Source: Verrucomicrobiota bacterium (GTDB lineage Bacteria > Verrucomicrobiota > Verrucomicrobiia > Limisphaerales > AAA164-E04). From it: a stretch of DNA of 64,000 bases. The DNA lies in NCBI GenBank assembly GCA_047947115.1, contig CP170459.1:4512001-4576000 (forward strand). The letters are read 5' to 3'. Below, one piece after another: positions 1-28,440 of the stretch. A program made the position numbers and the translations under genes. The notes beneath the pieces were generated by a model. The model was not told the origin of the DNA and did not search any database. It was given only the letters and a program-made list of their open reading frames with translations. Positions within the stretch are counted from its first letter, which is position 1; each line of letters begins with the position of its first letter.

Positions 1-2
1 TT

Positions 3-2480: not shown

Positions 2481-2557
2481 CCCTCCCCACTTTCAAACTG
2501 ATTTAAGATCGCCACTATACATTGCTTGTTTCACGTCTTGAGATTAGGATCTCTGGC

Positions 2558-4437
2558 ATGATCAGGATGGGTTCAATTCTACGACTGGCATGCTTGTCAG
2601 CTTGGTGCAGCACCTCAACGCTGCCACAAATCTTTTCACCTTCTGTCGTGATCAATGAGCTGCACTATGATGATGTCCCCAAGACATCACGCGGCGAATT
2701 TGTCGAGTTGTTCAACGCGGGCACGCTGACTGTGGATCTGTCCGAATGGCGTCTTGCTGGTGTCGGCAATTATTCGTTCCCAGCAGGCACGAATTTGGAA
2801 CCCGGTCAATTTTTGGTCGTGGCGGAAGATTCCCGGACCTTGAGAACCAAATACAGGATCCGCACTACGCATCAATACACTGGCGGATTGGACAATGATG
2901 GCGACAATCTCCGACTGTTTGATTCAGAAGGCAATCTGGTCGATCAAGTCGAGTATCAATCCGGCTATCCATGGCCGACAGCGGCTCGAGGCAAGGGTGT
3001 CTCTATGGAATTGCTGAACCCCTCACTCGACAACAATCTGGGAGGATCCTGGCGATCATCCGAAACACCGACTCCTGGCACCCAAAACACAGTTCTCACC
3101 CTGAATATTCCACCGCAAACCAGGCAGGTTAACCACCGACCACTGCAACCTTCGTCAGGAGAAGATGTCCATATCACAGTCAAAGTCACGGATCCAGACG
3201 GAGTCAAGCAAGTCACTTTAAGTTACCAATTGGTTGAACCCGGCCAATACATTCGCAAAAGCGACCGTTCCTATGAAAGCCAATGGACCGAAATCCCCAT
3301 GCATGACACCGGTGAGGATGGAGATGCAATGGCCGCCGACGCTGTTTATCATGTCAAACTACCTGCGTCACTGCATCGTCACCGCCTTTTGGTTCGTTAT
3401 CGCATTACCGCCGAGGATACACGGGGAAATTGGGTGACTATTCCTTATGCGGATGATGAGAGCCCCAATTTTGCCTATTTCGTGTATGACGGAGTACCTG
3501 CCTGGTCGGGTAGCTTGAGGCCGAGAGTTTCGCCAGGATTGGATTTTTCACAGGACATGATGGCTCAATCCATGCCTGTTTACCATCTCATCGCACGCCA
3601 GACCGACGTGGAAAACAGCCAATACAACCGCACGTATGACGGTCGTCGAATGTCAGGAACCCTGGTCTATGATGGAATCGTCTATGACCACATCCAGTTC
3701 TACAACCGAGGAGAAGCTTCGACCTATGTCAGCGGAAAAAACAAATGGCGATTCAAATTCAATTCCACACACGATTTTGCCAGTCGTGACAACTACGGAC
3801 AAAGATACCGAGCCAATTGGAAAACCCTCAATCTCAATGCCTGCGCATCACCCTGGGTGGCCTCCAACCGGGGCATGGCTGGATTGGACGAAGCAGTTCC
3901 ACACCGGCTCTACCAACTGGCAGGGGTAACCAGTTCAAACACGCACTGGATCCAGTTTCGCATCATCGACAATGAAGAAGAAGCACCCCCCGATCAATAC
4001 GAAGGAGACCTGTTGGGCCTATACCTGGCCATTGAACATCCGGACAGCCGTTTCCTGGAAGAGCGTCGTCTGCCGGATCGCAGCACCTACGAAATCGCCA
4101 GCAACCAAGGCAATAAGAAAAACCAGGGACCGGATCAACCTCTTGATCAATCAGACTGGGACACCTTTTGGAGCCTAAGCAATCGGCTCAACACCGTCGA
4201 ATGGTGGCAATCAAACTTTGATCTCCGCAGTTTCTACGGCTTTCGGGCCATCAATCGAGCCACCGGTAATGTCGATCTACGTGACGGAGCCAACTATTAC
4301 ATGTTTCAACACGCCAATGAACAATGGACTCCCCTACCCTGGGACCTGGACATGATGTATGCGCCGATCAAACACGTATGGAGTGGTGTTATCCGAGCCG
4401 ATCGTTGCCTGGATCACGAAGCCATCCGCATCGGTTT
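2558..4437 (+). pseudogene. N-terminal half of a lamin-tail-domain/CotH kinase-like protein, interrupted by the integrated element
   Basis: LTD motif VVINELHY..EFVELFNAG and CotH-like NYYMF..PWDLD. Coding character is lost after ..EAIRIG at attL; the ORF-track tail to 4576 is element-derived. Confidence 0.88.
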
Positions 4438-4446
4438 ACAAAACCG
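4432..4446. repeat. attL core CGGTTTACAAAACCG
   Basis: 14/15 identical to 26838-26852. Followed by GTGCTCTACC, the reverse complement of the tRNA D-arm segment GGTAGAGCAC. Confidence 0.9.
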
Positions 4447-4585
4447 GTGCTCTACCCGATGCGAGATTTTACATAAGTCATTCAAAAAGATGCAAACAAC
4501 ACAAATACAGCATTTAAAGCTCTGGATACATGTCGCAAGGTTTGCGAACATGAACGAACGCAAACGCAATTATTGACACTTTTAA

Positions 4586-4604
4586 CGTCAATACAATGTC
4601 AATG
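4586..4604. repeat. Putative integrase arm-type site (left), CGTCAATACAATGTCAATG
   Basis: 17/19 identical to 26741-26759; tandem GTCAAT motifs. Confidence 0.6.
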
Positions 4605-4687
4605 GAATAAGGCCCTTTCAGCCGGCAACCATGGCTGGTTATAGGGTTGTTTGGGCTATTTCGCTATAGGGTGGGCCAAAAACCGTA

Positions 4688-5131
4688 TCAAGTCACATCA
4701 CACCCAGAGTTTTCGTGAGAGTTCAGAATCGCGGTCACAGAGTTGACCTGAATCAACTTGTTCTGCTGTCCATGTGCCCGAGCCAAGCCTCCAATGACCC
4801 GCTCTGCTCGCTTGGAGAGCATTTCCAGTGCGCGTTCCCGCTTCAGAATGCTATCAATGCGACGCGGTATCGGCATACGACGGATCCAGTGTAGCGTCTC
4901 CATGACATCCGTGGACATGATCCGCTCGTATTCGGTAGGTAGCTGGTTGTCGTCCAGGTCATCGCCACACTGTCGATCCAGTCCCTCAGGGCCATCCCAC
5001 ATGTAGCGGCGCTTCCACTCGCGGACGGTGCCGGGCTTGATGTCCAAAAGAGCGCCTATCTCGTGCGATGATTTTCCTGCTTCAACGAGCTCCTTGGCTT
5101 GTCGTCTTATGTCCAGGGGTAGAGAAGACAT
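4688..5131 (-). CDS. HTH protein, terminase small subunit-like
   Basis: N-terminal HTH AKELVEAGKSSHEIGALLDIKPGTVREWKRRYMW resembles TerS/gpP-type HTHs. Helical C-terminus. Last gene of the element. Confidence 0.55.
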   Translation of the reverse strand: MSSLPLDIRRQAKELVEAGKSSHEIGALLDIKPGTVREWKRRYMWDGPEGLDRQCGDDLDDNQLPTEYERIMSTDVMETLHWIRRMPIPRRIDSILKRERALEMLSKRAERVIGGLARAHGQQNKLIQVNSVTAILNSHENSGCDVT

Positions 5132-5272
5132 GCTGAAAGCATATCGAATATTGGATCGAAACTCAACACTGTATCGTTATAGTTTTGAACAATGGTCTAA
5201 GCTCCACTAGCACTGGGAGCAGAAACGGCTCCCCCACACCTTGCGTTCCAGCGTCCCAGAGCTATGCCAGTC

Positions 5273-7680
5273 CTGACCATCCCCACGCGGGTGGGGAGAA
5301 CTCTGTATGCGGGGTGAACTGGCAGGCCCATGTCGGACCATCCCCACGCGGGTGGGGAGAACTATTTGCGCAATTTCGCGCTCCCCCACTTTGCCGGACC
5401 ATCCCCACGCGGGTGGGGAGAACTTTCGAGTGACAAAAGCGCGAAAGCCTAAAGCCGGACCATCCCCACGCGGGTGGGGAGAACTACCAACCAAACCCAG
5501 CGTTTGATTGGCAGCCCGGACCATCCCCACGCGGGTGGGGAGAACAAAAAATCGTTTTCCAGCTTCGCCAATAGCGCCGGACCATCCCCACGCGGGTGGG
5601 GAGAACGAATCATGCCATCGGAAATATCCGCTTTTTTCCGGACCATCCCCACGCGGGTGGGGAGAACGCGCTTTGGACGTTGTCGAATTGGTATCTCCCC
5701 GGACCATCCCCACGCGGGTGGGGAGAACCGCTTAGGAAAGCCTCTTGTGCCTTGGGATCTCGGACCATCCCCACGCGGGTGGGGAGAACGCATTGGCTGG
5801 CGCAGTCTGGCGCTTGTGGCTCGGACCATCCCCACGCGGGTGGGGAGAACTCAAGACCAAAATCCAAAACAAGCTTGACCTCCGGACCATCCCCACGCGG
5901 GTGGGGAGAACGCGCTTTGGACGTTGTCGAATTGGTATCTCCCCGGACCATCCCCACGCGGGTGGGGAGAACACAAATAACATCCGTAATCATAGCGCAA
6001 TGGCCGGACCATCCCCACGCGGGTGGGGAGAACAAAGGCGCGGCTCACCACTGCGCTCCTCAATGCGGACCATCCCCACGCGGGTGGGGAGAACTCAAGG
6101 GCATCCTTGTCTGCTTCACCCATGTTCGGACCATCCCCACGCGGGTGGGGAGAACTCAAGGGCATCCTTGTCTGCTTCACCCATGTTCGGACCATCCCCA
6201 CGCGGGTGGGGAGAACTTTTTCCGGTGGTATCAACGCGCATACGGCGGCGGACCATCCCCACGCGGGTGGGGAGAACCAATCAGTTTGCTGCCAGCGATA
6301 GCTTTTGTGCGGACCATCCCCACGCGGGTGGGGAGAACCACGGCACCTGCACTGTATTTCAATGGAACGTCGGACCATCCCCACGCGGGTGGGGAGAACT
6401 GTATGGCAGCGTAAGAGGCTGCATTCCTGAGCGGACCATCCCCACGCGGGTGGGGAGAACAAGTCCGCAGTGCGAGTTGGTGACGACATCCTCGGACCAT
6501 CCCCACGCGGGTGGGGAGAACATTGGTCCGGTTGGTGACCTCCGGGATGATAACGGACCATCCCCACGCGGGTGGGGAGAACGCGTTCGCTCGTTTAGTT
6601 TCAACCAGTTGGCTCGGACCATCCCCACGCGGGTGGGGAGAACCTTTTAGAGATTCCGGCAGCGGTGACAAAACCTGGACCATCCCCACGCGGGTGGGGA
6701 GAACAACAAGCGCAACAAGCAACGCCATAAGATTTTCGGACCATCCCCACGCGGGTGGGGAGAACTTGTGGCAATCCTGATAAGATCCTCCGATTGTCGG
6801 ACCATCCCCACGCGGGTGGGGAGAACTGTTTGTCCGGAGCGTTGCAAGGTCACATCATCGGACCATCCCCACGCGGGTGGGGAGAACCTCGTTTGTCTCT
6901 GTCTCTCGATCGGTACATGCGGACCATCCCCACGCGGGTGGGGAGAACCAGCGGGGAACACGTCACCCAAAGCTGGGTCACGGACCATCCCCACGCGGGT
7001 GGGGAGAACGCGATGCAGGGAGTAACCAAGTGCGCGTTGAACGGACCATCCCCACGCGGGTGGGGAGAACCTCGATTTTTGACCGTAGACGTGCAGGCAT
7101 ACCGGACCATCCCCACGCGGGTGGGGAGAACGGAGCATGTGACCAGACCAAATTGCTGAATGACGGACCATCCCCACGCGGGTGGGGAGAACTGCACGCT
7201 GAAGCTGGGCGCCGCGAATAATAACGGACCATCCCCACGCGGGTGGGGAGAACTTCAGCCATTGCGCGAATTCGTCACGCTACGCCGGACCATCCCCACG
7301 CGGGTGGGGAGAACACAGGCGCCAGCCGTTTGCTTTCGTTTCGCCGCGGACCATCCCCACGCGGGTGGGGAGAACAACACTGCAAACCCGCATTGAAGAA
7401 GCAAGCGCGGACCATCCCCACGCGGGTGGGGAGAACTGTTCTGTCTTGCTGATTATGCGCCAGTTGTGCGGACCATCCCCACGCGGGTGGGGAGAACACA
7501 ACCGCATCATAAATCTGCGCAGTGGGTGGCGGACCATCCCCACGCGGGTGGGGAGAACCTCGTCGGCCCATTCGGCGCTTGGTTCGTAGTCGGACCATCC
7601 CCACGCGGGTGGGGAGAACACCCAGCTATCGCCAGGAAGAAAGCCAACGTGCGGACCATCCCCACGCGGGTGGGGAGAAC
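5273..7680 (-). CRISPR. Type I-E CRISPR array: 40 repeats of 29 bp (GTTCTCCCCACCCGCGTGGGGATGGTCCG on minus strand), 39 spacers of 32 bp
   Basis: Strict 61-bp period from 5273 to 7652; palindromic I-E-type repeat. The degenerate terminal repeat at 5273 and cas2 adjacent at the other end give the orientation. Confidence 0.99.
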
Positions 7681-7729
7681 TCTGGATTATCAACAGGTTA
7701 GAGGCGAAGAAACGAGCTTTTTCTAGTTT
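7681..7729 (-). promoter_or_regulatory. Short CRISPR leader with IHF consensus site TATCAACAGGTTA (7688-7700)
   Basis: Exact match to WATCAANNNNTTR, 7 bp from the first repeat. Confidence 0.75.
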
Positions 7730-8029
7730 TCAGAAGGGGCAATTTTCCCCGTCAACCCAGTCTTCAGCGACCAGTTGAAGGCCGCTCATCAGAGTATCGC
7801 GTCGATCTGGATTACCCCAGCGCTCGATTCGAAAACCCTGAGTATTGGGTTCGGAGGTGATGATAAGAAGGCTCATGCCGGAGGCGTTGCGTTTGACATA
7901 TTCGAGGACCTTATCTCGAGTGCGACGATTCACCGTGCCAACAAACACATTTGGTCTGGGTTCAATAAACCAGCGTTTGAGCATCCCCCGAATGGCGGGT
8001 AGAGTGTCGTTGGCAATGAGAACGGTCAT
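7730..8029 (-). CDS. cas2: Type I-E Cas2
   Basis: [33 protein letters not shown]; follows cas1. Confidence 0.95.
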
Positions 8030-8038
8030 AAACAGAGA

Positions 8039-8926
8039 TCAAGAAATGGCGGACGGCGGACGAGTGTCGGCCTGTTGAGGAGCAGCCTCTTCCGTCTCAA
8101 ACAAACGTGCAAGATCCCTGGGGAGTTGTTGCAGGATGCGTTCCCTTTCGACATGTTGTTTGAGCAGTTTACGGACCAGCTCCCCATCGTCAGACGGGTC
8201 TTGTCGTGAGGCTAAAAAAGCGGCTGGAATACTCGTGCGATGTTTATATAGATCGGCAACGTCGTATATAAAAGGCAAGGTGCCAGCATCGTGAATGAAC
8301 CCAAGACTTGGCAGATAGCCAAGCGATGTCACTACTGCGGCGCATAGGGCGTAGAGGCTTGCATTTGCAGCAGAAAGAGCCCTATTGATGCCATCAGCAA
8401 GATGCCAGTTTCGGCGATCATAATTTCTACCTTTCCATGTGACACCATGTTGTCTACCAAATTCCGAGTAAAGAGCGCGAACACGGAGACCTTCCATGCC
8501 GCGTAATTCCTTGACGGTTTTTCCGGTTACATCAACATCGGGAAAACGCATTTGAAACATCGCCCGGGCAATCCGCGTGCGACGTCTTTTATCTGCCCAC
8601 GTCTCGGCGTGCAGCCGAGGCATGTCATTAGTGTGATTTGGAGCCAAACCAAAGGCGTAGAAACGCATCGACTCTCCCCCTGTCCAACACAATGGTGTGT
8701 TACTTTCCGCGCAAGCCTTAACGGCGGCATGAGTTACTGTCGTACCAGGTCCAAGTAACAATGCAGAAACAGTGGCAACAGGGATCCTACAGAGAGTACG
8801 GTCCGCACCGATCCATTTCACGCTAGAATCATCGACCTCCAAGCGTCCGTGCTCGAGATAAAGCGGCGTCCATCGATCCTTGGCTGGAGCGAGCGTTTCC
8901 AAAGGCGGACGTTCAAATAGAGGCAT
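8039..8926 (-). CDS. cas1: Type I-E Cas1
   Basis: LLGPGTTVTHAA, LRGMEGLRVR, LGFIH..FIYDVADLYK. Confidence 0.97.
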   Translation of the reverse strand: MPLFERPPLETLAPAKDRWTPLYLEHGRLEVDDSSVKWIGADRTLCRIPVATVSALLLGPGTTVTHAAVKACAESNTPLCWTGGESMRFYAFGLAPNHTNDMPRLHAETWADKRRRTRIARAMFQMRFPDVDVTGKTVKELRGMEGLRVRALYSEFGRQHGVTWKGRNYDRRNWHLADGINRALSAANASLYALCAAVVTSLGYLPSLGFIHDAGTLPFIYDVADLYKHRTSIPAAFLASRQDPSDDGELVRKLLKQHVERERILQQLPRDLARLFETEEAAPQQADTRPPSAIS

Positions 8927-8940
8927 CAGTCGGAAACGAT

Positions 8941-9651
8941 TTAAGGGTTTTTATTGATTGATTTGGATACGCGTCTGATCCAACGCGGTGTATGCCGTTC
9001 TCCAATGGGGCGACCGAAACCGATGGGATAATCCTCTATCATGTCTGCGCCATGATCGCCGGGTTCAGTTTCAACGACGTGATCAAAATCTCCCAACACA
9101 TGTTTGGTGGACAAACCAGCACGTTCCAACAAATCCTCCCAAACCTCTGAGCGCGGCCCCGGTCCGGCAGCAAGCACAGGACTGGCGGGCACACAAGATT
9201 TGCGCCCCAACCAAATGCCCCATTTGGGATCACTCAGGGCGTTTGCGATTTCAACCAACACAGCTACCGGGCCATCAAGCAACACACCGAAACGGGCGTC
9301 GAGCAAGTAGTGTCGATAAGTCAAGACGGTGGCATCAACCGCAACTTTGCCGCTGGCGCGGCGAATACCTGTAACCGTGTGGTAGTCCTCCAACCGTCGC
9401 ATGGGGAGAGATCGGTTTTGGCAGCTTGTTCGCATTAACGTCACCGTTGTTAATTGTAGTGAAGCAAAGCATTTCATGTGGTTCGCTTCCTCAGTGCCAT
9501 GTTTGTCGATCCCCATGGCTGCGGCGATAAGGCCAAGCACACCACTGCGAGTTGGGTGCAAAGCAGTTGTCCGACGGCCGAAACGCGAAGCATGTCCCCA
9601 CGATTGCATGGGACCGTCCAGTAACAACGCTAGACAGACATCAGATGACAT
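8941..9651 (-). CDS. cas5e: Type I-E Cas5 (CasD)
   Basis: GPMQSWG..PTRSGVLGLIAAAMG, DYHTV, RHYLLDA, LGRKSC. Start trimmed to MSSDV. Confidence 0.95.
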   Translation of the reverse strand: MSSDVCLALLLDGPMQSWGHASRFGRRTTALHPTRSGVLGLIAAAMGIDKHGTEEANHMKCFASLQLTTVTLMRTSCQNRSLPMRRLEDYHTVTGIRRASGKVAVDATVLTYRHYLLDARFGVLLDGPVAVLVEIANALSDPKWGIWLGRKSCVPASPVLAAGPGPRSEVWEDLLERAGLSTKHVLGDFDHVVETEPGDHGADMIEDYPIGFGRPIGERHTPRWIRRVSKSINKNP

Positions 9652-10720
9652 TCTGTGTAAGGGCCTCACAAAAGGCGTTAAGGTTGATATCTGGTAGAAT
9701 GACCTCAGCATCACAGGTAATGTCCCAGGTCTCTTTAAGTTTGGTGTGATGAGCTTTCAGTGCCTCCACCGAAGCTTCCAGCAGGCCGCTCTTAGCACGG
9801 ACCGGCGATTCGAAGGCATTGACTAATTGTAAGGGTTGACCAGTAGACTTGTAAATTCCTAGCACAAAACCGGGTCGCGTGTTGGCATTCATGGAATTTT
9901 TCCGCGCGCCGGGGACAGCTTCCAGAGTGGCACGAATGAAACCATCCACTACCTTGCGTCGCTCTTCAACTGACAACTTTGCCAAATGTGCTTCGTCAGC
10001 AAGGAGGCCGAGGTTCACTGCAGCATATCGATAATAAACAGCGGAGGAGAACTCCAGTGTACCGATCATCCCCGCACCAGCATCATCTTCCTTGGGCTTT
10101 GCATCGTCCAAGGCGGAATAGAAGTCGAGATCGCTGTCCGCCAAGTGGGTGGAAAGAGCGTGGCTGTACATGGCCGCTCCTTCCAGTGTGAGCGAGGGTA
10201 AACTGGCAACCATGCGTCCAAAAAGAGCGATGTCGGCGCCATCGACAAGCCCCGCTTTTTTGCATAGTTTGTCGAGATTCTTCTCATAGTCCTTGGCTTT
10301 TGGGTTGGACCTTACTAACTCGGCAACCTGTTGCGCGACGGAATCGATCTCTGAAGGCGCGAGAAAGATCAACGTACCTACCTGAGGAATTCGTCCGTCC
10401 TTGACGGACTTGGTGTCGATTTTGGCCAATTTGTCAGCAATATTGACAGCATGTTCGGCAGCTACTTTATCATCAGTAATACCGTGCTTCTGTAAGGCAT
10501 CCATCAGCGGCTGTACAATGAGCTTGGTGCGACTACCGTTGAATTTTGCATCCGGAAGATTGGCCTGAGCGTATTCGCGAATCGCTCGCTTTAACGACTG
10601 ACTGGAAATCCGAGCGCGGTTGACACCACCGAACACGGCGGCTTTAGGAGATCCCACGTCATCTCGATTAAGGCAAGAAACGGGGAAAGACTGGAGGATG
10701 TGCAATTCAATGAGTTTCAT
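9641..10720 (-). CDS. cas7e: Type I-E Cas7 (CasC/Cse4)
   Basis: LNRDDVGSPK..RARISSQSLKRAIR, DIALFGRM. Confidence 0.97.
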   Translation of the reverse strand: MKLIELHILQSFPVSCLNRDDVGSPKAAVFGGVNRARISSQSLKRAIREYAQANLPDAKFNGSRTKLIVQPLMDALQKHGITDDKVAAEHAVNIADKLAKIDTKSVKDGRIPQVGTLIFLAPSEIDSVAQQVAELVRSNPKAKDYEKNLDKLCKKAGLVDGADIALFGRMVASLPSLTLEGAAMYSHALSTHLADSDLDFYSALDDAKPKEDDAGAGMIGTLEFSSAVYYRYAAVNLGLLADEAHLAKLSVEERRKVVDGFIRATLEAVPGARKNSMNANTRPGFVLGIYKSTGQPLQLVNAFESPVRAKSGLLEASVEALKAHHTKLKETWDITCDAEVILPDINLNAFCEALTQNVI

Positions 10721-10753
10721 ATTCTGTTTTGTATCGATTAAATATTATCTTGA

Positions 10754-11422
10754 TCAAAGGTTGAGAGGAGCCAGAACAAGCAGTCCAAATCCAAACGCCT
10801 TGGCCGAACCGATACCGGTTGCAACTGCTTCGCGGAACTGTAACGAATCCGTAACAGTCAATTCTCCTTGAAATTCGACGGCATTGTGCGTGCCATGCGT
10901 GTGGGCGTCCTTGTGAAAGAACTCGCGACCACGCGGGATGGTGCGAAGTGAATCCCTGTTTAGGGCGAATCCGGCTACTTCAGCTTTGCGGTGAAGCCAC
11001 GCGATAAGGTCTCCACGCTTGGTAATGGCAAGACGACGACCATTTTTTGTACGTTCACCCGCTTTGTTCGATCGAACCTTGCGCGTGGGATTGGCCAATA
11101 AGCTGAAACGGTAGGAAGAATGCTCGAAAAAGGCGTCCGGAATGGGTTTCGTCCCAAAGCTATCAGTCGGGCACCAGTCAGGCTTACGCGGAATGTTCCG
11201 CGAAAGGATCAAAACCTGAAAGCACAAATCCTTCCGGTCCACCCGCGTGAGGAAATCACGGGGCTGTCTGTCTGTTCCACCAAATGCAAGCCAGATCTTC
11301 TGGTGCCAATCGTAGGTATCCCGGATGCGAAGCAAACGGATAGCATCCTCATAAGAGACTAGGATCTGAGTTAGATGCAGCGCCTCGACAGCAACAGTCG
11401 AAGGAGTTGTAGCGGTAATCAT
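10754..11422 (-). CDS. cas6e: Type I-E Cas6e (CasE/Cse3)
   Basis: YDWHQKIW, FSLLANPT, C-terminal G-loop GIGSAKAFGFGLL. Confidence 0.96.
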   Translation of the reverse strand: MITATTPSTVAVEALHLTQILVSYEDAIRLLRIRDTYDWHQKIWLAFGGTDRQPRDFLTRVDRKDLCFQVLILSRNIPRKPDWCPTDSFGTKPIPDAFFEHSSYRFSLLANPTRKVRSNKAGERTKNGRRLAITKRGDLIAWLHRKAEVAGFALNRDSLRTIPRGREFFHKDAHTHGTHNAVEFQGELTVTDSLQFREAVATGIGSAKAFGFGLLVLAPLNL

Positions 11423-11973
11423 ATGTTAGCTAGTTGGATGGGATTTTCTGGGGTAGCGGCGTCTGCGGTATCGATTCCGGAACGCCAGAAGGAACGAGCC
11501 CATTGCACGCGAATATCGTCTGCATACCAGCGCCAGTTCCAAAGGTCGGCGAAGAGCGATTCGTAATTCACGCCTATACCTTTACCTGAGGCAAGACGTA
11601 TCCATGAACGCAATTGCTCCACGAGGTCGGAGGGCTCACCAGAAACGATAAGTCGTCGGAAGCGCCGCTCGTAGCTCTCGGGTAGTGCATTATCGGGCGA
11701 GTGAGCGATCGCAATCGCGCGGCACGTATCACCAAAGTTGCGCACATTGGATCCTTCAGGATGTGTTGCAAACAGCGCAGCAATATCAACGTGCACGGAT
11801 TCACCAGGCTGTCCAATACTTCCGCCGAGGCCGACGACCACAGGCCAGGCATTGACGACGGTGGAGCGGCTGAGACCGCGACGCAATGCCGCCATCTTAC
11901 CGCGGTTGTTTTGAATGCGGCGAAGTCTTGCAACGAAGTCAGCAGCACGCTCACTAGGCTTGATTTTGCTCAT
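11419..11973 (-). CDS. cse2: Type I-E Cas11 (Cse2/CasB)
   Basis: GKMAALRR, ERRFRRL, VNYESLFADLWNW..WARSFW. Confidence 0.92.
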   Translation of the reverse strand: MSKIKPSERAADFVARLRRIQNNRGKMAALRRGLSRSTVVNAWPVVVGLGGSIGQPGESVHVDIAALFATHPEGSNVRNFGDTCRAIAIAHSPDNALPESYERRFRRLIVSGEPSDLVEQLRSWIRLASGKGIGVNYESLFADLWNWRWYADDIRVQWARSFWRSGIDTADAATPENPIQLANI

Positions 11974-16067: not shown

Positions 16068-16288
16068 TAGCTCGAAAGGTCGTTAGATTTTCTTTTTCCA
16101 ACAAGATTTTTTTGTTAATTAATTCGGGCTAAGTTTTAAACAAACATAGAGCTCGTTTGTCGTCAACACAAACAAACAGACCGATCAGATATTCACGATC
16201 ATTTCTAGGCTTCATACAAGTCTATCTCGGAAATCGAGCTTGCACCAAAAATCTTTAAACAGATTCAAAAAAAAAATTCTTCGTCCGG

Positions 16289-20555: not shown

Positions 20556-20579
20556 ACGATGGTAATTTAGTGGATGGGG

Positions 20580-20598
20580 TAGGACAAAAACTGTCCTA
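20580..20598. promoter_or_regulatory. Inverted repeat TAGGACA-N5-TGTCCTA, operator-like
   Basis: Perfect 7-bp arms, 25 bp upstream of the HEAT gene start. Confidence 0.5.
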
Positions 20599-20606
20599 GG
20601 CTTGTA

Positions 20607-20774
20607 TTAAATGGATTTATTGTCTTCATCTAAAGTCTCTGGGGGTTTGTTGTTGTTGTCGTCTTCGCTGGTTTTTTCATGATAGGCTTTCCAAACCTCA
20701 TCAGGAATTAGGGTCAGTGCGCTTCCTGCTTCCAGGTAAAGCTCACGCAAAGAGTCGTCTTTAGAATCAGGCAT
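20607..20774 (-). CDS. Small acidic hypothetical protein (55 aa)
   Basis: ATG overlaps the upstream stop (ATGCCTGA). Confidence 0.45.
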   Translation of the reverse strand: MPDSKDDSLRELYLEAGSALTLIPDEVWKAYHEKTSEDDNNNKPPETLDEDNKSI

Positions 20775-21009
20775 TTTGGACCCCTTCTTTTGAATTCGAA
20801 ACAACATTTTTCCAACCGTCACGAAGCAATGAATTCCGTTTCTGGTGGGCCTTGGTGCGGGATTTTGTGTGGAGATTCACTCGGAACCGTTCCTGTCGGA
20901 ATCCATCCTTAATCGCCCAGAAGTGGCACCACCAGGTGCCGTGATTTTGGAATAGGTGATGGTCGGGATTATTTTTCCGAACCCGCACCGAAAGACTCCA
21001 GCTACTCAT
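20767..21009 (-). CDS. Small basic protein resembling a three-stranded DNA-binding (integrase arm-like) domain
   Basis: NPDHHLFQNHGTWW..ERFRVNLHTK..KAHQKRN pattern; coupled to both neighbours. Confidence 0.65.
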   Translation of the reverse strand: MSSWSLSVRVRKNNPDHHLFQNHGTWWCHFWAIKDGFRQERFRVNLHTKSRTKAHQKRNSLLRDGWKNVVSNSKEGVQNA

Positions 21010-21190
21010 TGTTCGCCTCCTTCGGTTGATGATTGCATGTCTGGCCTGTCTCGACTACCCGAGGAATCCTGCGGATGGGGATCACGATGAGTTGCTCACC
21101 GTCTTTCAAGAAGGAGCTTTTGCCCTCTATGTTGATTTGATCAGGCTGACGCGATGACGCGTTACCTGTCGTTTGTTTTTTGTCTGTCAT
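21002..21190 (-). CDS. Small hypothetical protein (62 aa), first ORF after the riboswitch
   Basis: Starts ~45 nt after the terminator; stop overlaps the next ATG. Confidence 0.45.
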   Translation of the reverse strand: MTDKKQTTGNASSRQPDQINIEGKSSFLKDGEQLIVIPIRRIPRVVETGQTCNHQPKEANNE

Positions 21191-21233
21191 GGCTCAATGT
21201 TTTTTCTGGTTTCATTGGCCACCAGGATCTGGA

Positions 21234-21272
21234 AATACAAAAGACCCGCACTCCAATCAGGAACGCGGGTCT
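21234..21272 (-). terminator. Intrinsic terminator (riboswitch expression platform)
   Basis: Minus strand AGACCCGCGTTCC-TGATT-GGAGTGCGGGTCT followed by TTTGTATT. Confidence 0.85.
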
Positions 21273-21282
21273 AAAATCCGGA

Positions 21283-21400
21283 GGAGACTTACTTTCCACT
21301 CAATTGAGTGGCTCATCCGATACTTTTCAGTATCGAAGGCACCTTGGCTCTCCCAGCCAGGTTGCCAGGTCTTGCAACTTGCAGGACCGTTCCTGATGAC
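21283..21400 (-). ncRNA. SAM riboswitch aptamer, SAM-I/IV variant
   Basis: P1 TCATC/GATGA; P2 GGTC..GACC; P3 GGCAACC..GGTGCC core; P4 CGATACT-GAAA-AGTATCG; P5 CCACTC-AATT-GAGTGG; L3 GGAGA complementary to 3' TCTCC (PK-2). Confidence 0.88.
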
Positions 21401-21406
21401 GACTTC

Positions 21407-21435
21407 AACCTACATCATGCAGATGTGTTCGACAA
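21407..21435 (-). promoter_or_regulatory. Putative sigma70 promoter for the riboswitch, TTGTCG-N17-TAGGTT
   Basis: 17-bp spacing; predicted +1 falls at the first aptamer base (~21400). Confidence 0.55.
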
Positions 21436-21456
21436 TACTGTTTTGTGTCATAAAAC

Positions 21457-21774
21457 TTAGTCGGACGAGTCTGGTTCGCCAATCAAACACCAGATCCCTT
21501 CTTCCCGTATGGTTTTAAGAACTTCGTCCAGAGCCTCCTGATCGGTATCAAAGGGATCATCCCAGACGGTCGAATTATCGTATTCGTCTTCAACCTCAAG
21601 TATCCATTTGCCTTCTCCGTCTCCGTAAATTTTAACGGAAACAGAGTCGTCGCCAATGCTGATGACTTGGCACAATGGAGAATACACGAGCTCAAAATCG
21701 TCGTCGCCTCCCTCGATTTCAAAAGTTGGTCTGATCATTTTCAATGAATCTAACCAACGGGGCGTTCCAGTCAA
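21457..21774 (-). CDS. Small acidic hypothetical protein
   Basis: 105-aa D/E-rich ORF, WILEVEDE..STVWDDPFDTDQEAL. Start uncertain. Confidence 0.65.
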   Translation of the reverse strand: MTGTPRWLDSLKMIRPTFEIEGGDDDFELVYSPLCQVISIGDDSVSVKIYGDGEGKWILEVEDEYDNSTVWDDPFDTDQEALDEVLKTIREEGIWCLIGEPDSSD

Positions 21775-21844
21775 CTCCGCTCAGAGTTGATCGGATGGCT
21801 GTCGCTGGGTGTATTCCGGCGTCTACTTTTTACCTGTGCGTTTT

Positions 21845-21970
21845 ACTGCAACTGGTTTCCTGCACTGCAGAACAGTAATAAACCTGCCAGTTACTGCAAC
21901 TGCAAACCCTAAAGGGTTTTTGCAGTATGCAGTTAACCTGGCTTTAGCTTTTTCACTGCAACGCTGCAGT
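21845..21970. repeat. Putative replication origin: clustered ACTGCA/TGCAGT iterons around a central palindrome
   Basis: About nine (A)CTGCA/TGCAGT copies in both orientations at the 3' end of the helicase gene, centred on AAACCCT-AA-AGGGTTT. Confidence 0.65.
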
Positions 21971-23005
21971 AGTCCAGATACGAGTCTTAGGTTCCTTGGT
22001 CACTGAACCATCATGCTCAAGCTGCTTGAGCAAATTGTGAAAAGTACGTTCGCTCATTCCTGTCTCTTCTCTGGCAAGCTTGAGCCAGTCCTTTGTTTTG
22101 CAACCTGAAACCGGCAACAACTCAAGCAATTGCTCTGATGAATACTTCTTGCTTGCTCCTGCCTTGGTCTTCAGATCAGAAGGATCGAAGTCAACTCTTG
22201 TACAAACAGGATGACTCCAGCTTATCACGAAGCTTTCAACACTCGGATGATTACGCAGGACCAAGTCCACAGTGAAACAATCCTCTTCCTTGTGCTTGGT
22301 CATTGTCACCAGTGCATCCGGATCTCGAGCAAATACACCACTGCCTGAGAATCGATCCATTTGTTCCTTGCCGGCTTGGTTGCCCTTGGAAAAATGGTGA
22401 GCACTGATGACGGCGGCACCGGTCTGGTTGGCTATGTCATCAATTATGTTCAAAAACTCCGCTATTTCCCCGGCGGCGTTTTCATTCCTACCGGCCATGA
22501 TCTTGTAAAGCGGATCAAGGATAATGGCCCCATACTTCATCGGAGCTGCCCGGCTGCATATGGCTTCTCTGATGGTCGTAATATCGGGATTGTGACCGCG
22601 CAAGCCCCAGTAGTCGATGTTCTCCATTCCACCATCGGGATATTTTGCGACAACACCTTTGATCGATTGATCAATATTGTCCATGCGCTCCATGAAAAAC
22701 GAAGTGAGCAGTTCCATATTGACATACAAAACGCGGCACTTGTTAGTTTTAAAATCCAACCAGCTTCCGCCTGAAGCCAGTGCATGTGCAAGTTGCATCA
22801 GGATCCAAGTCTTGTTGGATTTGGATCCACCGCCAATGATCATTTTGCAACCGGCGTGTAACACCCCATCAATCAATTCCGCGGGCTTCTCGCGATCCTG
22901 CGGATTCAATTGACTGAGGGGTGTTATTTCCGGCAGATCATTGCCTTGCGCCAAGGCAAGATCCAGTGGATCCAGAATTAATTGTTCGGCATCCATCGTT
23001 CGCAT
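21953..23005 (-). CDS. RepA/AAA_25-type replicative helicase with probable C-terminal wHTH
   Basis: GGGSKSNKT, VLYVNME, IILDPLYK, HHFSKG, SGSGVFARDPD. Confidence 0.88.
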   Translation of the reverse strand: MRTMDAEQLILDPLDLALAQGNDLPEITPLSQLNPQDREKPAELIDGVLHAGCKMIIGGGSKSNKTWILMQLAHALASGGSWLDFKTNKCRVLYVNMELLTSFFMERMDNIDQSIKGVVAKYPDGGMENIDYWGLRGHNPDITTIREAICSRAAPMKYGAIILDPLYKIMAGRNENAAGEIAEFLNIIDDIANQTGAAVISAHHFSKGNQAGKEQMDRFSGSGVFARDPDALVTMTKHKEEDCFTVDLVLRNHPSVESFVISWSHPVCTRVDFDPSDLKTKAGASKKYSSEQLLELLPVSGCKTKDWLKLAREETGMSERTFHNLLKQLEHDGSVTKEPKTRIWTTAALQ

Positions 23006-23997
23006 AGGTCTCCATGTTGGCTCCAGTAATCATAAAGGTCGTTCACCCCTTTAAATGGCGACAATTCGTATACCTCCACTGAAGAGCACCCTGCATCAAG
23101 TAACTGTTTTTTCCAGCGGGATGCCGCTCGCCTTCCAGCTTCGTCATCATGTCCGAAGATCCTAATCACTTTGCCCTTGAAAAAAGGAAGCACGGCCTCA
23201 TGTATGAGTGAAGAGCTGCCAAGCATGCCCACGGGTGCACAATTAGGTTCTGGCTGTTCGGTCTGGATGATGTGATGTGCAATCAGGAAATCCGGAATTC
23301 CCTCAACCAAGGCTATGTTCCTGAACTTTGATGCCTCCACAATACCAACGGGCCAGCTTTTCCGACTACCGGGCTCGGCCTTGCTTTTAATTCCTGCTGG
23401 AAATGGCTTGTTGTCCAGCCGCCGTGCCTCAATGACGTTCCCTGTTTTGTCGCATACGTAGTAGCATTCGTTCTTGCACTTAAGAACGCCGCGCTCCGAA
23501 GCCCAGAGCAGTCCCTGCAGACCGTAAGGCCTCTCATGAGCCATTTGCTGCAGAATCTGCCTAGAGGGCTTCAGAAGGCCGCGACCTTGCTCGTATGCCT
23601 CTGCATCCAGAAACATTTTGGGATCCAAGTTAACCGGTTGATCCTTGGTCCTGCGCAAAGGGCGGATCCGCTTTGGTGGGGCAACCTTAGCCAGGGTTCT
23701 GTATATGTCCAACACCTTGGCAAAATCTTTGTGCCGATCGAAACCGTGAACAGTGGCAATGAATTGAAGTTCATCTCCAACAAGTCCTGTTCCGTGGTCT
23801 TTGAACAACCAATTGGTCTCAACTTGATAAATCCCAAAACTTGGATTCTTATCGTCCCTGAAGGGTGAAGAACATGATTTTTTGGCATAATCGCCGAAAT
23901 CCATTGCTTCCATCAGATCTGGGAGTGGAAGCGCTTGTTTGAGTTGTTTAATTTGACTCTGCACCTTGGCAGGAGTTTGAACTTTTAATTGTTTCAT
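22978..23997 (-). CDS. DnaG-like primase (degenerate CHC2 zinc finger + Toprim)
   Basis: SCSSPFRDDKNPSF..FKDHGTG..GD; Toprim LVEGIPD and GHDDEAG. Start trimmed to the ATGA overlap. Confidence 0.82.
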   Translation of the reverse strand: MKQLKVQTPAKVQSQIKQLKQALPLPDLMEAMDFGDYAKKSCSSPFRDDKNPSFGIYQVETNWLFKDHGTGLVGDELQFIATVHGFDRHKDFAKVLDIYRTLAKVAPPKRIRPLRRTKDQPVNLDPKMFLDAEAYEQGRGLLKPSRQILQQMAHERPYGLQGLLWASERGVLKCKNECYYVCDKTGNVIEARRLDNKPFPAGIKSKAEPGSRKSWPVGIVEASKFRNIALVEGIPDFLIAHHIIQTEQPEPNCAPVGMLGSSSLIHEAVLPFFKGKVIRIFGHDDEAGRRAASRWKKQLLDAGCSSVEVYELSPFKGVNDLYDYWSQHGDLCERWMPNN

Positions 23998-24404
23998 AAA
24001 TTTGAGTTGGGAGAGTACACACCCTCCCCAATTGATAAGTTTTCTGTTAATGGTTTGATTTCCACTACCTTGGCCATGGTTTGACCTTCGGCCTCGAAAT
24101 GCGCTACTTTCAGTTGGCATTTCTTTCCCTTGAGCTTCATTAGATCGAACTCGTTGTGAAGTTCCTCTGGACCTACCCATGCAGATAGATCCTTTAGCAG
24201 ATTGCTTTTGGGATGCAGGGTTGCGTTATAGGATTTCCTGATCTGAAGCGTCTCTGATGAGTCTTCAGGGACGATCAACCATGTGAAACGGACGAGGTGC
24301 TTGTTGCCATATTCAGTAGGCACAAAGCCTCTGTCCACGATCTCGGAGCAAATTGCCCGATGCCATCCCTCTTGGGGCAGTTGTCTAAGTAATTTTAACT
24401 TCAT
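23994..24404 (-). CDS. Phage-type ssDNA-binding / replication protein (OB-fold-like)
   Basis: PQEGWHRAIC..VDRG..KSNLLKDLSAW..LKGKKCQLKV; directly upstream of the primase. Confidence 0.6.
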   Translation of the reverse strand: MKLKLLRQLPQEGWHRAICSEIVDRGFVPTEYGNKHLVRFTWLIVPEDSSETLQIRKSYNATLHPKSNLLKDLSAWVGPEELHNEFDLMKLKGKKCQLKVAHFEAEGQTMAKVVEIKPLTENLSIGEGVYSPNSNL

Positions 24405-24506
24405 GATTTTATGGGTGTTCGTGTGCCTAAATGCACAGGAAATTGGTTTGTGACGGAAAATCTCAAGGCACAGATATCCATCCAGACACCCCGAAAAGGG
24501 GGTGCC

Positions 24507-24824
24507 CTACTTGCTAATCTGTTGTGTTGGATTTTTTGTTGGGGGGTGGGGGGTGTTCCTCCTGACGGCTTTGATTTCGAGCAAATTCAAGGCTTGCTTG
24601 ACACTATCTGGGTCGAAGCGAACGCACCTTTTGCCGAGGCGGGTCACCGGAATCTTTTTGGCATCTACCAACTTTTCGAGTTGGCGAATTGAGATTTGAA
24701 GCTGGGCGGCTAGCTGCCGCTTGTTGAGATAGGAATTACCATACCAGGTTGAATTGACAAAGTCGCTGCAATTTGCGCTATTGTTTCCCAATTGTGTGTC
24801 TCGTGCAGGAGTGTTCGTATCCAT
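24507..24824 (-). CDS. Excisionase/AlpA-like HTH protein
   Basis: YLNKRQLAAQLQISIRQLEKLVDAKKIPVTRLGKRCVRF. Confidence 0.8.
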   Translation of the reverse strand: MDTNTPARDTQLGNNSANCSDFVNSTWYGNSYLNKRQLAAQLQISIRQLEKLVDAKKIPVTRLGKRCVRFDPDSVKQALNLLEIKAVRRNTPHPPTKNPTQQISK

Positions 24825-24855
24825 GTGGACAACCTGTCCGACGTTTGAGGAAATG

Positions 24856-25518
24856 TCATCTGGACAATTTTGGATCCAAGTTTGTCCAACTCGCATCTAG
24901 TATAAATTGAAAACCTTTACGGCGAAACCCTCTTATTATTGGCCCTCTAGTTACGTGGTTGTATCGAATTAGCCCCAGTCTCTGAACTGCTTTCCGGTAG
25001 TTTTGCTCATCACACGTATGTCCGCTTATTTTTGAAAGGTGATAGGCTCCATCATCGTCTGTCATCATCCATAAAAACCCATTCACCCAAAACTGTAGAA
25101 TTCCAAACTCGATTTTGAACGTTTTTTTACTAATGCGTCTGGTGTATCTTCGGTGAGCAGTATGGATTTTTTGAAAAAACTCAGAATCCCCATTGAGTGC
25201 CTTCTCTAGGATATGATAAGCGAAGAACTTCAATGCAGCGTCAAGCTGGCCGAGTGAAATTAAACCAAAAAACGCTTCATCTTTTTTCGTGTCACTCTTT
25301 GTTATATCCTTTTGGCTCTTTGAGAGCCCAAAAGCTTTCCGTTGATATGCATGGACCTTTTCTTTCCAATTTTTGTGAACTTTGTCAAAGCCTTCGATTT
25401 TCGTTGTTTTCCTAAAAAAATCTTCTAGCCCGTTATCCAACTGCCATTTTTTACCTAGCTGTTGTCCAACACCTGCCAGTAACTCATCCCACTCGTCTAG
25501 TTGGTATGATTTTTCCAT
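24856..25518 (-). CDS. Hypothetical protein, possible element regulator
   Basis: ATG overlaps the integrase stop (TAATG); lies between integrase and xis-like gene. Confidence 0.6.
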   Translation of the reverse strand: MEKSYQLDEWDELLAGVGQQLGKKWQLDNGLEDFFRKTTKIEGFDKVHKNWKEKVHAYQRKAFGLSKSQKDITKSDTKKDEAFFGLISLGQLDAALKFFAYHILEKALNGDSEFFQKIHTAHRRYTRRISKKTFKIEFGILQFWVNGFLWMMTDDDGAYHLSKISGHTCDEQNYRKAVQRLGLIRYNHVTRGPIIRGFRRKGFQFILDASWTNLDPKLSR

Positions 25519-26711
25519 TAACTTCCTTTTAAGTGACTCAGTTCTCTTCGTAGGTCTAGGACCGAGTTTTGTGGATCTGGTAAACATTCCTTTAATTGAG
25601 GAAAGGCAACTTCTGATCGGATACTCCAGTAGGCTTCGGATTTATCCTTAGTTACCAGTTCCCGGTAATGCTGGTAAAGCATCGCCGTATCAGAGTGCCC
25701 CAGTTCCATGGCGGTTCGTTTTGGGTCATTGAACATCGCATAGTGGTATGAAGCAAAGGAATGGCGGAAGTCGTTCTTCCTTGCCCGTCCGATCCCAAGT
25801 TCTTGCCACGCTGCATTTAATAGTCGTCTCAAGTTTGGAGGCTTCACTTTCCCACTCCGATTGCCTTGGGCAAATAGCCATGATTGGAGGTTCGGTTGGA
25901 TCTCAACCAAGCGTCTTCTTGAGGTTTTGGCATTGGCTGCTTTGATTTCAATGTAGCCGGATTCCAGGTCAACCTCATCCCAGTTTAGCTTATCCAGTTC
26001 GGCGATCCTTAGGCCAGCGAATGCTGCGATAGCCAGGTAGGAATGGATCTTGGGATCCGCAACTGACAACAACTTTCTTAGTTGCTCTGGCGTCAGTATC
26101 TTGATGGGATCTGGTTTGGCTTTGACTTTCTCGATTCTGGAGACTGGGTTCTCAGCAACAAAGCCGTGCTTCAAGGCATGGGTGAAAAGTCCGTTCAGGA
26201 CTGTCCTGAAGTTGTTCATGCTCTGTGCGCTCAGTCCAAGGCTATGAATCCAATGGTCGATCTCCGAAGCTTTGATGGTTGCAGCAATTTTCTTTTGGAA
26301 AGCCTCATTAAATCGGCCTAATCTGTAGCTCAAATCTTTGAGGTATCGTTCACTGTTTTGTTTTCGAGATTTGGTGCCCAGATAATCTGCAATCAGATCG
26401 GAAACAGTGCAGCTGTTCTTGGAGCTTTCCAGGTGGGATAGGTAAAAGTTGACGGCTTCAGAAAGTGTGGCTTTGAAGGGCTTGAGGCGATCATCACATT
26501 GGACTGCTTCAAGACGTAACTGGTCGCTGATTGCGAAGGCTTTGTTGCCGAGGTTTTCAAGTTCGATTAAGATTTGATCCCTGCGAGTATTCGCCTCTTT
26601 TTTGGTTTTGAAGAATTCGCGGGTGCGCTTGCCATCCTTTGGGTAGCCGACGACCCATTTTGAAGTAGGAGAATGCTTGTAAGGTTTGACAGAAACTTTC
26701 GGCGAGCCCAT
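25518..26711 (-). CDS. int: Tyrosine recombinase/integrase
   Basis: AGLRIAEL, AKT, NDFRHSFASY, LGHSD..HY catalytic motifs; adjacent to attR. Confidence 0.95.
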   Translation of the reverse strand: MGSPKVSVKPYKHSPTSKWVVGYPKDGKRTREFFKTKKEANTRRDQILIELENLGNKAFAISDQLRLEAVQCDDRLKPFKATLSEAVNFYLSHLESSKNSCTVSDLIADYLGTKSRKQNSERYLKDLSYRLGRFNEAFQKKIAATIKASEIDHWIHSLGLSAQSMNNFRTVLNGLFTHALKHGFVAENPVSRIEKVKAKPDPIKILTPEQLRKLLSVADPKIHSYLAIAAFAGLRIAELDKLNWDEVDLESGYIEIKAANAKTSRRRLVEIQPNLQSWLFAQGNRSGKVKPPNLRRLLNAAWQELGIGRARKNDFRHSFASYHYAMFNDPKRTAMELGHSDTAMLYQHYRELVTKDKSEAYWSIRSEVAFPQLKECLPDPQNSVLDLRRELSHLKGS

Positions 26712-26740
26712 GCGTTTAAGTTCGCATATGAGCGTTTTTG

Positions 26741-26759
26741 CGTCAATAAAAAGTCAATG
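26741..26759. repeat. Putative integrase arm-type site (right), CGTCAATAAAAAGTCAATG
   Basis: Direct repeat of 4586-4604. Confidence 0.6.
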
Positions 26760-26803
26760 TTTCGGCACTAAGCTTGAGCATTGTGTGTAAGTCGTTGAAG
26801 GAG

Positions 26804-26852
26804 TGGAGCCAGCTGTCGGGGTCGAACCGACGACCGACGGTTTTCAAAACCG
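26804..26852 (-). other. tRNA-Thr-like 3' fragment and attR core (CGGTTTTCAAAACCG, 26838-26852); not a complete tRNA
   Basis: Minus strand ACCGT-CGGTC-GTCGG-TTCGACC-CCGAC-AGCTGGC-T-CCA = variable loop, T-arm, 3' acceptor strand and CCA. Confidence 0.88.
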
Positions 26853-28440
26853 ATGCCGCGAATTGCTCGATCTTTTGTTTTCTGACATCAAGCGTCATGG
26901 AGGCCAGGCCGCACAATTGGTTCAAGAACTTTCACAGATTGTGAACCCGGACCAATGGCCACTGACCATGGTTGATGTGGATGAAACCATGTGGAGTTCC
27001 CATCCGAAAACAAGTGGTTCCCACCGTGGCCCCTGGTATCGACTGTCCGTCAATGAAACCAGACTTGCCAGCAGCTACCGCAGAAATATTCCGACCCCCG
27101 ATCATGAAGGATTTCAGCAACGTATCATCGAGTATATGTTCAACACGCGGCCAGACGGAAGTTTTCGAGTCAACGATGCGATCGAGGATGGTTATGGTTA
27201 CGGATATCTATCTCAAGAAGCTTCGGCATCGGGCATTCCGAACCGTCCCGACATATCCTATGCAGGAGAACCCGGCTTTCCGGTTGACGGTTTGGCTTTT
27301 AACAGCAGCACCTTCGTCAACCCGAGAGATCCTAGCGGATTTGCCCGGATGGAATGGAGAATAGGAGAAGTGTCCAATCCGGAAACCGAAAACTACGTCC
27401 CCGGCACACCCTGGATTTATGAGATCGAACCTCTCTGGCACAGCGATCCCATGACAACTTTTTCAGAGACTATGGCCATCCCGCCGGACCAGCTCAAACC
27501 GGGACACACTTACCGCGCGAGAGTGCGACACGTCAACACAGAGGGGCATGCCAGTCATTGGTCACTACCATTGGAATTTGTCGCCTCGGCACCGGATTTG
27601 ACCTTGTTTCGGAACGGATTGGTCATCAGTGAAATCATGTATCACCCAGCTGGGGATTCCACGGCCGAATACATTGAACTTCACAATATCGGCGAAGCCA
27701 CTCTCTCCCTGAGTGGCTTCCGTTTCACGAAGGGAATCGATTTCGATTTCCCCGATGACACTGAAATAGAGCCAGGAGGATACCTGTTGATCACAGGCGA
27801 CCGGCAAGCCTTTGAAAGAGTGTATGGGCCAAACCTACCCATAGTCGGGGAATGGGAACAAGGGGACCGGTTGAGCAACGCCGGAGAAAACATCAAGCTC
27901 TCCTACGGGGCAGGCATCCCCATCATCGACTTCACGTATGAAACAGAAGCCCCCTGGCCAACCGCTCCCGACGGAAAGGGTTCATCTCTGCAACTTGCCA
28001 ACCTCCGTTCTGGCTTGGATCACACCAATCCCGCGCAATGGAAAGCAAGCATTCAACCAGGAGGCACGCCGGGCAAAAGCAATGGTAACTCTCTTGAAGA
28101 TTGGCTGACGTCTTATGGGATTATCGAATCCAATCTCGAAGAAGATCCGGACAATGACGGTCTGCCTTCGTTACTGGAATATAGTCTGGGAAGCAACCCA
28201 AACGTTGCCGATGTTTCATCCATCATGACCATCACATACACCGAGGCAAATGTCACGCTAGCCACCCGAGTTGATCTCGGAGCCACCGATGTGGAGGTGT
28301 CTGCACAATTTTCCACCAACCTGAAAGCCTGGGAAACAATCAATAGCCCGGCCATCAATCCCACCAGTCCGACCGAACTGAAATGGACCGCCCCAACCCA
28401 CCCGAAGGGATTCTTCCGCCTTCAAGCCACTCGACGTTAA
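26844..28440 (+). pseudogene. C-terminal half of the interrupted CotH/lamin-tail protein
   Basis: FQNRCRELLDLLF continues in frame from IRIG; second LTD (LVISEIMYHP..EYIELHN); DPDNDG..LEY..GSNP tail. Confidence 0.88.

Follow-up and report, generated by a model that had tools for sequence, protein, structure and literature searches.

This study concerns a 64-kb stretch of the genome of a Verrucomicrobiota bacterium (the window; the source genome, G000, is a single 6.08-Mb contig, C1) and a 22,406-bp integrative island that lies at 4438..26843 of it, within a gene encoding Lamin-Tail (LTD) and CotH domains. We consider it very probable that this island normally targets tRNA-Thr(UGU) and has integrated here off-target, at a look-alike of the anticodon stem-loop within the CotH gene. 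The preliminary description of this DNA had proposed a secondary-site integration into a coding-sequence mimic. It suggested aligning the attachment site of the element (attP) with the host tRNA, finding empty alleles and asking whether homologous integrases sit at tRNA-Thr; the identity of attP, the empty alleles and the locations of the relatives all support the proposal.

The 5′ part of the interrupted gene (2522..4437, plus strand, 638 codons) carries LTD and CotH domains (Pfam, 1.5e-22 and 6.6e-15, respectively), and beyond it the frame continues through 46 island codons to a stop at 4576. The 3′ part (26844..28440, plus strand) encodes a second LTD domain and is in frame with 2522-4437 after removal of the 22,406 bp. 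Likewise, in the list of open reading frames and their translations, the frames 2522-4576 and 26803-28440 become one when the island is taken out. The product of the restored gene is a large protein with LTD domains and a CotH domain by Pfam, and the CotH match in the uninterrupted orthologue of genome G007 extends to just short of the insertion site. The two junctions share a 19-nt core. The core of attL (4432..4450, CGGTTTACAAAACCGGTGC) and that of attR (26838..26856, CGGTTTTCAAAACCGATGC) are identical at 17 of the 19 positions. The mismatches are at 4438/26844 (A/T) and 4447/26853 (G/A), with attL holding the island base (4438 A, 4447 G) and attR the host base (26844 T, 26853 A) at both. 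The assignment of T to the host and A to the island, previously argued from the tRNA identity, holds, since 26844 occupies the third place of a Phe codon that all three orthologues retain (TTT, TTT and TTC). The junction sequences at both ends agree with the preliminary description, as does the perfect 11-1-11 palindrome formed by the joined host flanks, which we read from both flanks and the orthologue alignment. The insertion, with the junctions as described, is thus confirmed.

The island ends identify the tRNA from which attP derives. ARAGORN finds 50 tRNA genes in the 6.08-Mb genome, of which the sole tRNA-Thr(UGU) is at G000:C1 c[3759130,3759204], and none within the 64-kb window. The right end of the island (26804..26843, minus strand) is identical at 40 of 40 nt to the 3′ part of that gene, positions 37-76 including CCA, and BLAST lengthens the match to 49 nt with 1 mismatch. 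The left end (4438..4456, minus strand), the P-arm side of attP, corresponds together with the shared 4432-4437 to positions 17-41, with one mismatch, A27C. Joined, the two ends carry positions 18-76, and joining them in a script reproduces exactly the tRNA-like attP string reported before. The element and its junctions are real, while the ends given earlier (4428..26855) need adjustment: the tRNA-identical part ends at 26804, with CCA, and the shared core at 26856. As expected of an island of the anticodon-loop type that targets a tRNA gene, attP includes all of the tRNA between the crossover and the 3′ end. Furthermore, it continues about 17 nt past CCA into the tRNA 3′ flank of another lineage, because an unoccupied tRNA-Thr(UGU) in a metagenome locus (L033) has a native 3′ flank equal to the start of the island's arm; the flank of the tRNA in G000 itself differs. 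Rfam reports a partial tRNA match across attR (26815-26867, minus strand) that is sub-threshold (20.2 bits vs a gathering score of 29), and no functional tRNA is formed at either junction.

The target in the CotH gene keeps both 6-bp stem arms, CGGTTT-N3-AAACCG, and is identical to the tRNA core at 14 of 15 positions; it lies within a protein gene. This stretch encodes I-G-F-Q-N-R, and its sole departure from the tRNA core is the third base of the anticodon. In the whole G000 genome, with the island removed in silico, the exact 15-bp attP core occurs only in tRNA-Thr(UGU), and a version with one mismatch is present in tRNA-Thr(CGU), in the distal repeat of its island, at one unrelated site and at the CotH site, four places in all. 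The arms with any central triplet occur at 10 places in the genome, six of them in tRNA genes or island repeats (Thr-CGU twice, Arg-CCU, Thr-UGU and Ser-GCU twice) and two being attL and attR. The two remaining sites have central triplets less similar to TGT than that of the CotH site, counted in matching positions. The CotH site is thus the best non-tRNA look-alike in the 6.08-Mb genome. By our own arithmetic, one-mismatch core sites are expected by chance about 0.4-0.5 times per genome and a perfect palindrome with 11-bp arms about once per genome. The palindrome is therefore unremarkable alone, and it is the match to attP that carries weight. The orthologues in G001, G007 and G021 encode I-G-F-(Q/K/R)-N-R-C at the site, and the related species use GGA or another codon where G000 has GGT, so that the perfect left arm is missing there. 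The perfect left arm is thus a species-specific synonymous codon choice.

Empty alleles were found in related genomes and in wild populations. BLAST of the flanks shows the left and right host flanks to be contiguous, with no indel, in the orthologues of G001 (80% DNA identity), G007 (75%) and G021 (66%). A regular-expression search for the exact core pattern in these orthologue loci (L002-L004) gave no match, because those species differ at the site. Twenty metagenome runs of 13 studies (estuary, seawater and marsh) each contain roughly half of the words sampled from window 3438-5437. Four runs from four studies (X1, X2, X4 and X6) were compared as contigs with window 1-20000. In all four, a contig more than 99% identical to the left flank ceases to match after 4450, where the shared core ends (X1 record 2, X2 record 10, X4 record 17 and X6 record 29). 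For the X4 and X6 contigs, the listed 30-nt continuation equals window 26857-26886 at 30 of 30 positions; the X4 contig with the empty allele is 21,369 nt long at a depth of 24. An exact search of metagenome contigs for a 25-nt pattern of the host right flank found no match. The contigs of the four runs show presence, not absence, and we claim no occupancy frequency from them. The insertion is recent and strain-specific.

The island encodes a tyrosine integrase of 397 aa (25518..26711, minus strand). Its translation matches Pfam PF00589 (2.2e-13; 50.8 bits vs a cut-off of 27.1, residues 205-352) and phrog_1 (5.9e-42), and aligns at full length with the homologue in G002, a scaffold of Verrucomicrobia bacterium SCGC AAA164-E04. 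Tyrosine recombinases carry the catalytic residues R..(H/K)xxR..(H/W)..Y. In the translation, read by eye, GLRIAE, DFRHSF, LGHSD and a downstream Y can be picked out. We surveyed homologues in 41 genomes, including G000, and at four metagenome loci (L031-L034) obtained with a query made of the tRNA end and the first 10 nt of the island arm. A scan of genomic contigs with the integrase gave one relative only, so the survey rests on these 41 genomes and four loci. The top matches among the genomes are those of G002 (77%), G019 (67%) and G012 (65%). In G002 and G019 an intact tRNA-Thr(UGU) stands directly upstream of the integrase. At L031 and L032 an intact tRNA-Thr(UGU) is followed by the arm motif described below and then by an integrase, 80% identical over the 79 aa present and 67% identical over 364 aa, respectively. 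In these four cases the integrase sits 40-60 nt downstream of the tRNA. Of the five closest integrases (65-80%), therefore, four lie beside an intact tRNA-Thr(UGU), one is a truncated remnant and none is in the CotH gene. L034 holds a decayed distal tRNA fragment with a flank like that of L033. The distal att sites of the G002 and G019 elements were not found up to the contig ends, and the crossover is therefore not bounded from these primary-site relatives.

The remoter homologues (27-49%) lie beside tRNA-Ser(GCU), Thr(CGU), Thr(UGU), Leu(CAA), Val, Pro and a tmRNA gene. Two of them are paralogues in G000 itself. The 49% paralogue heads a 45.8-kb island at tRNA-Ser(GCU) (G000:C1 3848254-3894103) with a perfect 66-nt direct repeat running from tRNA position 28 to the 3′ end, and the 35% paralogue heads a 9-kb island at tRNA-Thr(CGU) (G000:C1 4306-13472) with a perfect 55-nt direct repeat from position 22. 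The tRNAs Thr-UGU, Thr-CGU and Ser-GCU have a common stem, ACGGT/ACCGT, and a loop of the form TT-NNN-AA; their anticodons differ. At the tRNA-Thr(UGU) locus of G000 (L035, G000:C1 3758803-3759204), a 286-bp insert with the gene for an 83-aa GIY-YIG protein (Pfam 1.3e-17) comes after the tRNA, and behind it the 3′ part of the tRNA is repeated over 41 nt, position 36 through CCA, with 1 mismatch. The insert is either a miniature tRNA-duplicating insertion or a remnant of an older element at the primary att site.

Both ends of the island carry the motif ATTGAC-N5-ATTGAC, which has exactly two matches in the window, both on the minus strand. One (4587..4603) lies 146 bp inside the left end and is adjoined by a third, inverted GTCAAT; the other (26742..26758) lies 85 bp inside the right end, in the integrase-proximal arm. 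The same motif stands at the corresponding place after the tRNA in G002, G012, L031 and L032. We infer that these are putative arm-type binding sites of a heterobivalent integrase. The bases at which attP and the target differ allow the exchange to be placed. In tRNA sense, the left arms are accompanied by positions 27 (attP C, target T) and 36 (attP T, target A), and the right arms by position 43. The exchange as inherited therefore maps to tRNA positions 37-42 (window 4432-4437 and 26838-26843), partly outside the 7-nt anticodon loop. Taken as sequence, the junctions fit either a 6-7-bp overlap at 37-42 or a classical 7-nt loop overlap (32-38) with a segregated heteroduplex at position 36. 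In the latter model, the island base in attL and the host base in attR are the pattern expected in a daughter that inherited one continuous strand. Besides, inserted in this orientation the island has one mismatch in the 7-nt loop, where the reverse orientation would have two. This modestly favors the loop model, since the orientation cannot be set by the palindromic arms.

Comparable behavior is known from other elements. Lambda uses secondary att sites; its integration requires overlap homology, and an overlap mismatch gives heteroduplex junctions that segregate. Our case resembles lambda secondary att sites in that the target is similar to the core and attL and attR differ, and departs from them in that the integrase is of another clade and the core is tRNA-derived. 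Williams (2002, in Nucleic Acids Res) is said to have set out an anticodon-loop sublocation class of tRNA-targeting integrases. As in that class, attP here spans the tRNA from its anticodon stem through and past the 3′ end, a symmetric anticodon stem flanks the presumed crossover and the integrase gene adjoins the tRNA 3′ end. The inherited exchange at 37-42, partly outside the 7-nt loop, sets it apart. A parallel in kind, a tRNA-gene-specific tyrosine-integrase element that enters look-alike sites in protein genes, is ICEBs1 of Bacillus subtilis. According to Menard and Grossman 2013 (PMC3715440), its attB is a 17-bp stem-loop in a tRNA gene, with 5-bp arms and a 7-bp spacer. The same study describes 15 secondary sites, nearly all within genes and some with just 2-3 mismatches, and poor excision from all secondary sites tested (PMC3715440). 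The ICEBs1 events were laboratory-made and mostly in an attB deletion, whereas ours is a natural event with the primary site intact. The present island also differs from ICEBs1 in having no recognized conjugation genes, in combining a primase-helicase module with CRISPR-Cas and in its verrucomicrobial host.

Several observations weigh against an off-target integration. The primary site, tRNA-Thr(UGU), is intact in G000 and without an integrase-bearing island, so that the use of a secondary site is unexplained. In ICEBs1 with attB present, the commonest secondary site is used at about 1e-4 to 1e-3 of the primary rate (PMC3715440). In G012 (L030, G012:C82 6703-7385), non-tRNA DNA abuts a tRNA-Thr fragment that begins near position 30; the arm motif comes next, and then an integrase truncated to 180 aa, beside a host gene. 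This locus may represent another off-target insertion, a tandem junction or a decayed element. The empty alleles of G001, G007 and G021 belong to other species (66-80% DNA identity) and have imperfect arms. Record 2 of X1 and record 10 of X2 have exactly two unlisted differences each, which fits the host T and A by count alone, the bases being unread. Finally, no contig of the four runs covers the left arm of the island (4451-4674), and the occupied junction is therefore documented by the assembly alone. This last point would be expected if the island really sat at tRNA-Thr(UGU), or was extrachromosomal, and had been misjoined through the 15-19 bp of shared sequence: none of the four runs bridges an occupied junction, and support from the source strain comes from its assembly. 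Yet we hold such an artefact to be highly improbable. The junctions are reciprocal, with each mismatched base segregating with its own arm and no bases lost or gained; the genome forms a single 6.08-Mb contig; the assembly has an intact tRNA-Thr(UGU) at another place, between different flanks; and a 19-bp imperfect repeat should be too short to mislead a long-read assembly.

One could also suppose that the CotH-gene site is the regular target, the integrase having switched specificity and the tRNA-like attP being a relic. The perfect stem arms of the site, and the difference between attP and the host tRNA at position 27, would fit such a switch. Nevertheless, the 40-nt tRNA 3′ part and the 17-nt flank remain intact in attP though purposeless at the CotH site, and the integrase is 65-80% identical to those at tRNA-Thr(UGU). 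Moreover, an occupied CotH site was seen in none of the three orthologous genes and none of the four metagenome runs, and the perfect arms reflect species-specific synonymous codon choices. We therefore give this explanation very little credence. Hardly more can be said for a programmed switch that interrupts the gene and excises to restore it, in the manner of skin/sigK or of active lysogeny, which we regard as very unlikely too. Precise excision would indeed restore an intact frame, and both the integrase and a candidate excisionase are intact. Against this, the empty allele seems to occur in most of the natural population (a depth of 24 in X4 vs 4-5 for identical cas genes) and the relatives use the tRNA. 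The mismatch between attL and attR, in or beside the overlap, should also hinder excision, to judge from the ICEBs1 secondary sites (PMC3715440).

The off-target integration very probably proceeded as follows. The island is driven by a lambda-type (heterobivalent) tyrosine integrase that naturally targets the anticodon stem-loop of tRNA-Thr(UGU). Its attP reproduces tRNA positions 18-76 and continues for about 17 nt into a foreign tRNA 3′ flank, with the ATTGAC-N5-ATTGAC sites on either side. The integrase recombined this attP with a secondary site in the LTD/CotH gene, which has its arms through codon choice, and the outcome is a simple conservative insertion that splits the gene and leaves hybrid attL and attR sites differing at two positions. 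The anatomy, the match to the tRNA, the empty alleles and the places of the relatives are directly documented. On this account the integrase probably recognizes the stem arms, the mismatch probably falls in or next to the overlap region, and excision from the CotH site may be impaired. A bolder proposal is that the integrase clade reads only the stem arms (CGGTTT/AAACCG), leaving the three anticodon bases to DNA-DNA homology with attP. It is suggested by the 35-49% paralogues, since these use three tRNAs with a common stem and different anticodons, and by the CotH site, which keeps the arms and has one central base changed; we advance it tentatively and think it rather doubtful.

Apart from its recombination functions, the island carries a defense system and modules that it has in common with other islands. 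Next to the left arm lies a module of about 580 bp (4675..5256), delimited by profile searches and genome comparison, with an open reading frame resembling HTH/Terminase_5 (4688-5131, minus strand). G000 has four more copies of this module with 82-90% identity (109713-110290, 150849-151418, 1700704-1701284 and 3893197-3893778), each inside or at the edge of a tRNA-flanked island. Three copies are about 240-260 bp from the tRNA gene or tRNA-fragment repeat that bounds the island (Ser-CGA, Glu and Ser-GCU), and the fourth is inside the Ser-CGA island; the integrases of these islands differ. In X4 and X6 the module also turns up in different surroundings, where there is a loose end before 4675. 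In the island the module is followed by a CRISPR array (5273..7680, minus strand) of 40 repeats of 29 nt with a 61-nt period and 39 spacers of 32 nt. A search of the G000 genome found no self-targeting spacers, only chance matches of 16-17 nt for 5 of the 39. The adjoining cas operon (7730..16067, minus strand) is a complete type I-E set: cas3, cas8e/cse1, cse2, cas6e, cas7, cas5, cas1 and cas2. All eight genes were recognized by Pfam, and PADLOC gives Cas3e at 8e-171 and Cas8e at 1e-68; with the array, this identifies the system as type I-E. In X4 the cas genes are 100% identical and are found only on short contigs, at a depth of 4-5 compared with 24 for the host flank; only part of the X4 population seems to carry them.

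Beyond the operon, profile searches identify a DUF2201 metallopeptidase/VWA-like protein, a MoxR-type AAA ATPase and a 717-aa HEAT-repeat protein (16289..20555, minus strand). PADLOC found no defense system in these HEAT, MoxR and DUF2201 genes, only weak IetA P-loop matches. Contigs of X4 cover window 16676-20000, within this region, at near host depth (18-23) and only about 95% identity. The region has no second copy in G000, and wild relatives may carry a variant island elsewhere, possibly at the tRNA. A replication module (21953..24180, minus strand) comprises an AAA_25 helicase-like gene (21953-23005) and a CHC2/Toprim primase-like gene (22978-24180). Window 21218-24551 is 97% identical to G000 1684419-1687747, in a second island of 19.7 kb. 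That island sits at tRNA-Glu, has a 31-nt T-arm direct repeat and carries another integrase at the far end. Islands with different att specificities thus have the replication module in common. The candidate excisionase is a small HTH_17, AlpA-like protein (24507..24896, minus strand) that scores 21.5 bits, below the Pfam cut-off of 27, and has a counterpart in the G002 element with 92% identity over 60 aa. Apart from the integrase, the HTH_17 gene is the only one that this island has in common with the G002, G019 and G012 elements. Profile searches recognized no structural phage genes and no conjugation genes in the island. Typical phage-inducible chromosomal islands (PICIs) are smaller than 22 kb. 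Our island is similar to primase-helicase or PICI-type islands with defense cargo (PMC10111431) in its integrase, small HTH protein, primase and helicase. It resembles them further in its terminase-small-subunit-like HTH gene, its defense cargo and the lack of recognized structural or conjugation genes; this likeness is one of gene content alone, and we do not claim membership.

Off-target integration by tRNA-specific elements is already well documented (ICEBs1, lambda), and the case presented here is a natural one, in another phylum. It provides a fully reconstructable natural example, in which attP, the primary and secondary attB, both hybrid junctions and the wild empty allele can all be recovered, in a host phylum, Verrucomicrobia, that is little studied. 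It points to a probable requirement of the integrase in the anticodon stem-loop, namely that the arms are kept and one central base is tolerated, and it illustrates how synonymous codon choice can make a decoy att site inside a gene. For the bacterium, the insertion means the inactivation of an LTD/CotH surface-protein gene, and the site now harbors a complete CRISPR-Cas I-E system. More generally, tRNA fragments within split genes can flag misdirected islands rather than tRNA pseudogenes. If the integrase does read only the stem arms, the insertion would show the first step of a switch of target as captured in nature. Changing three bases of attP would then suffice to retarget islands between tRNAs or to coding sequences that bear the arms, and the mismatched overlap would now hold the CRISPR-Cas island in place.

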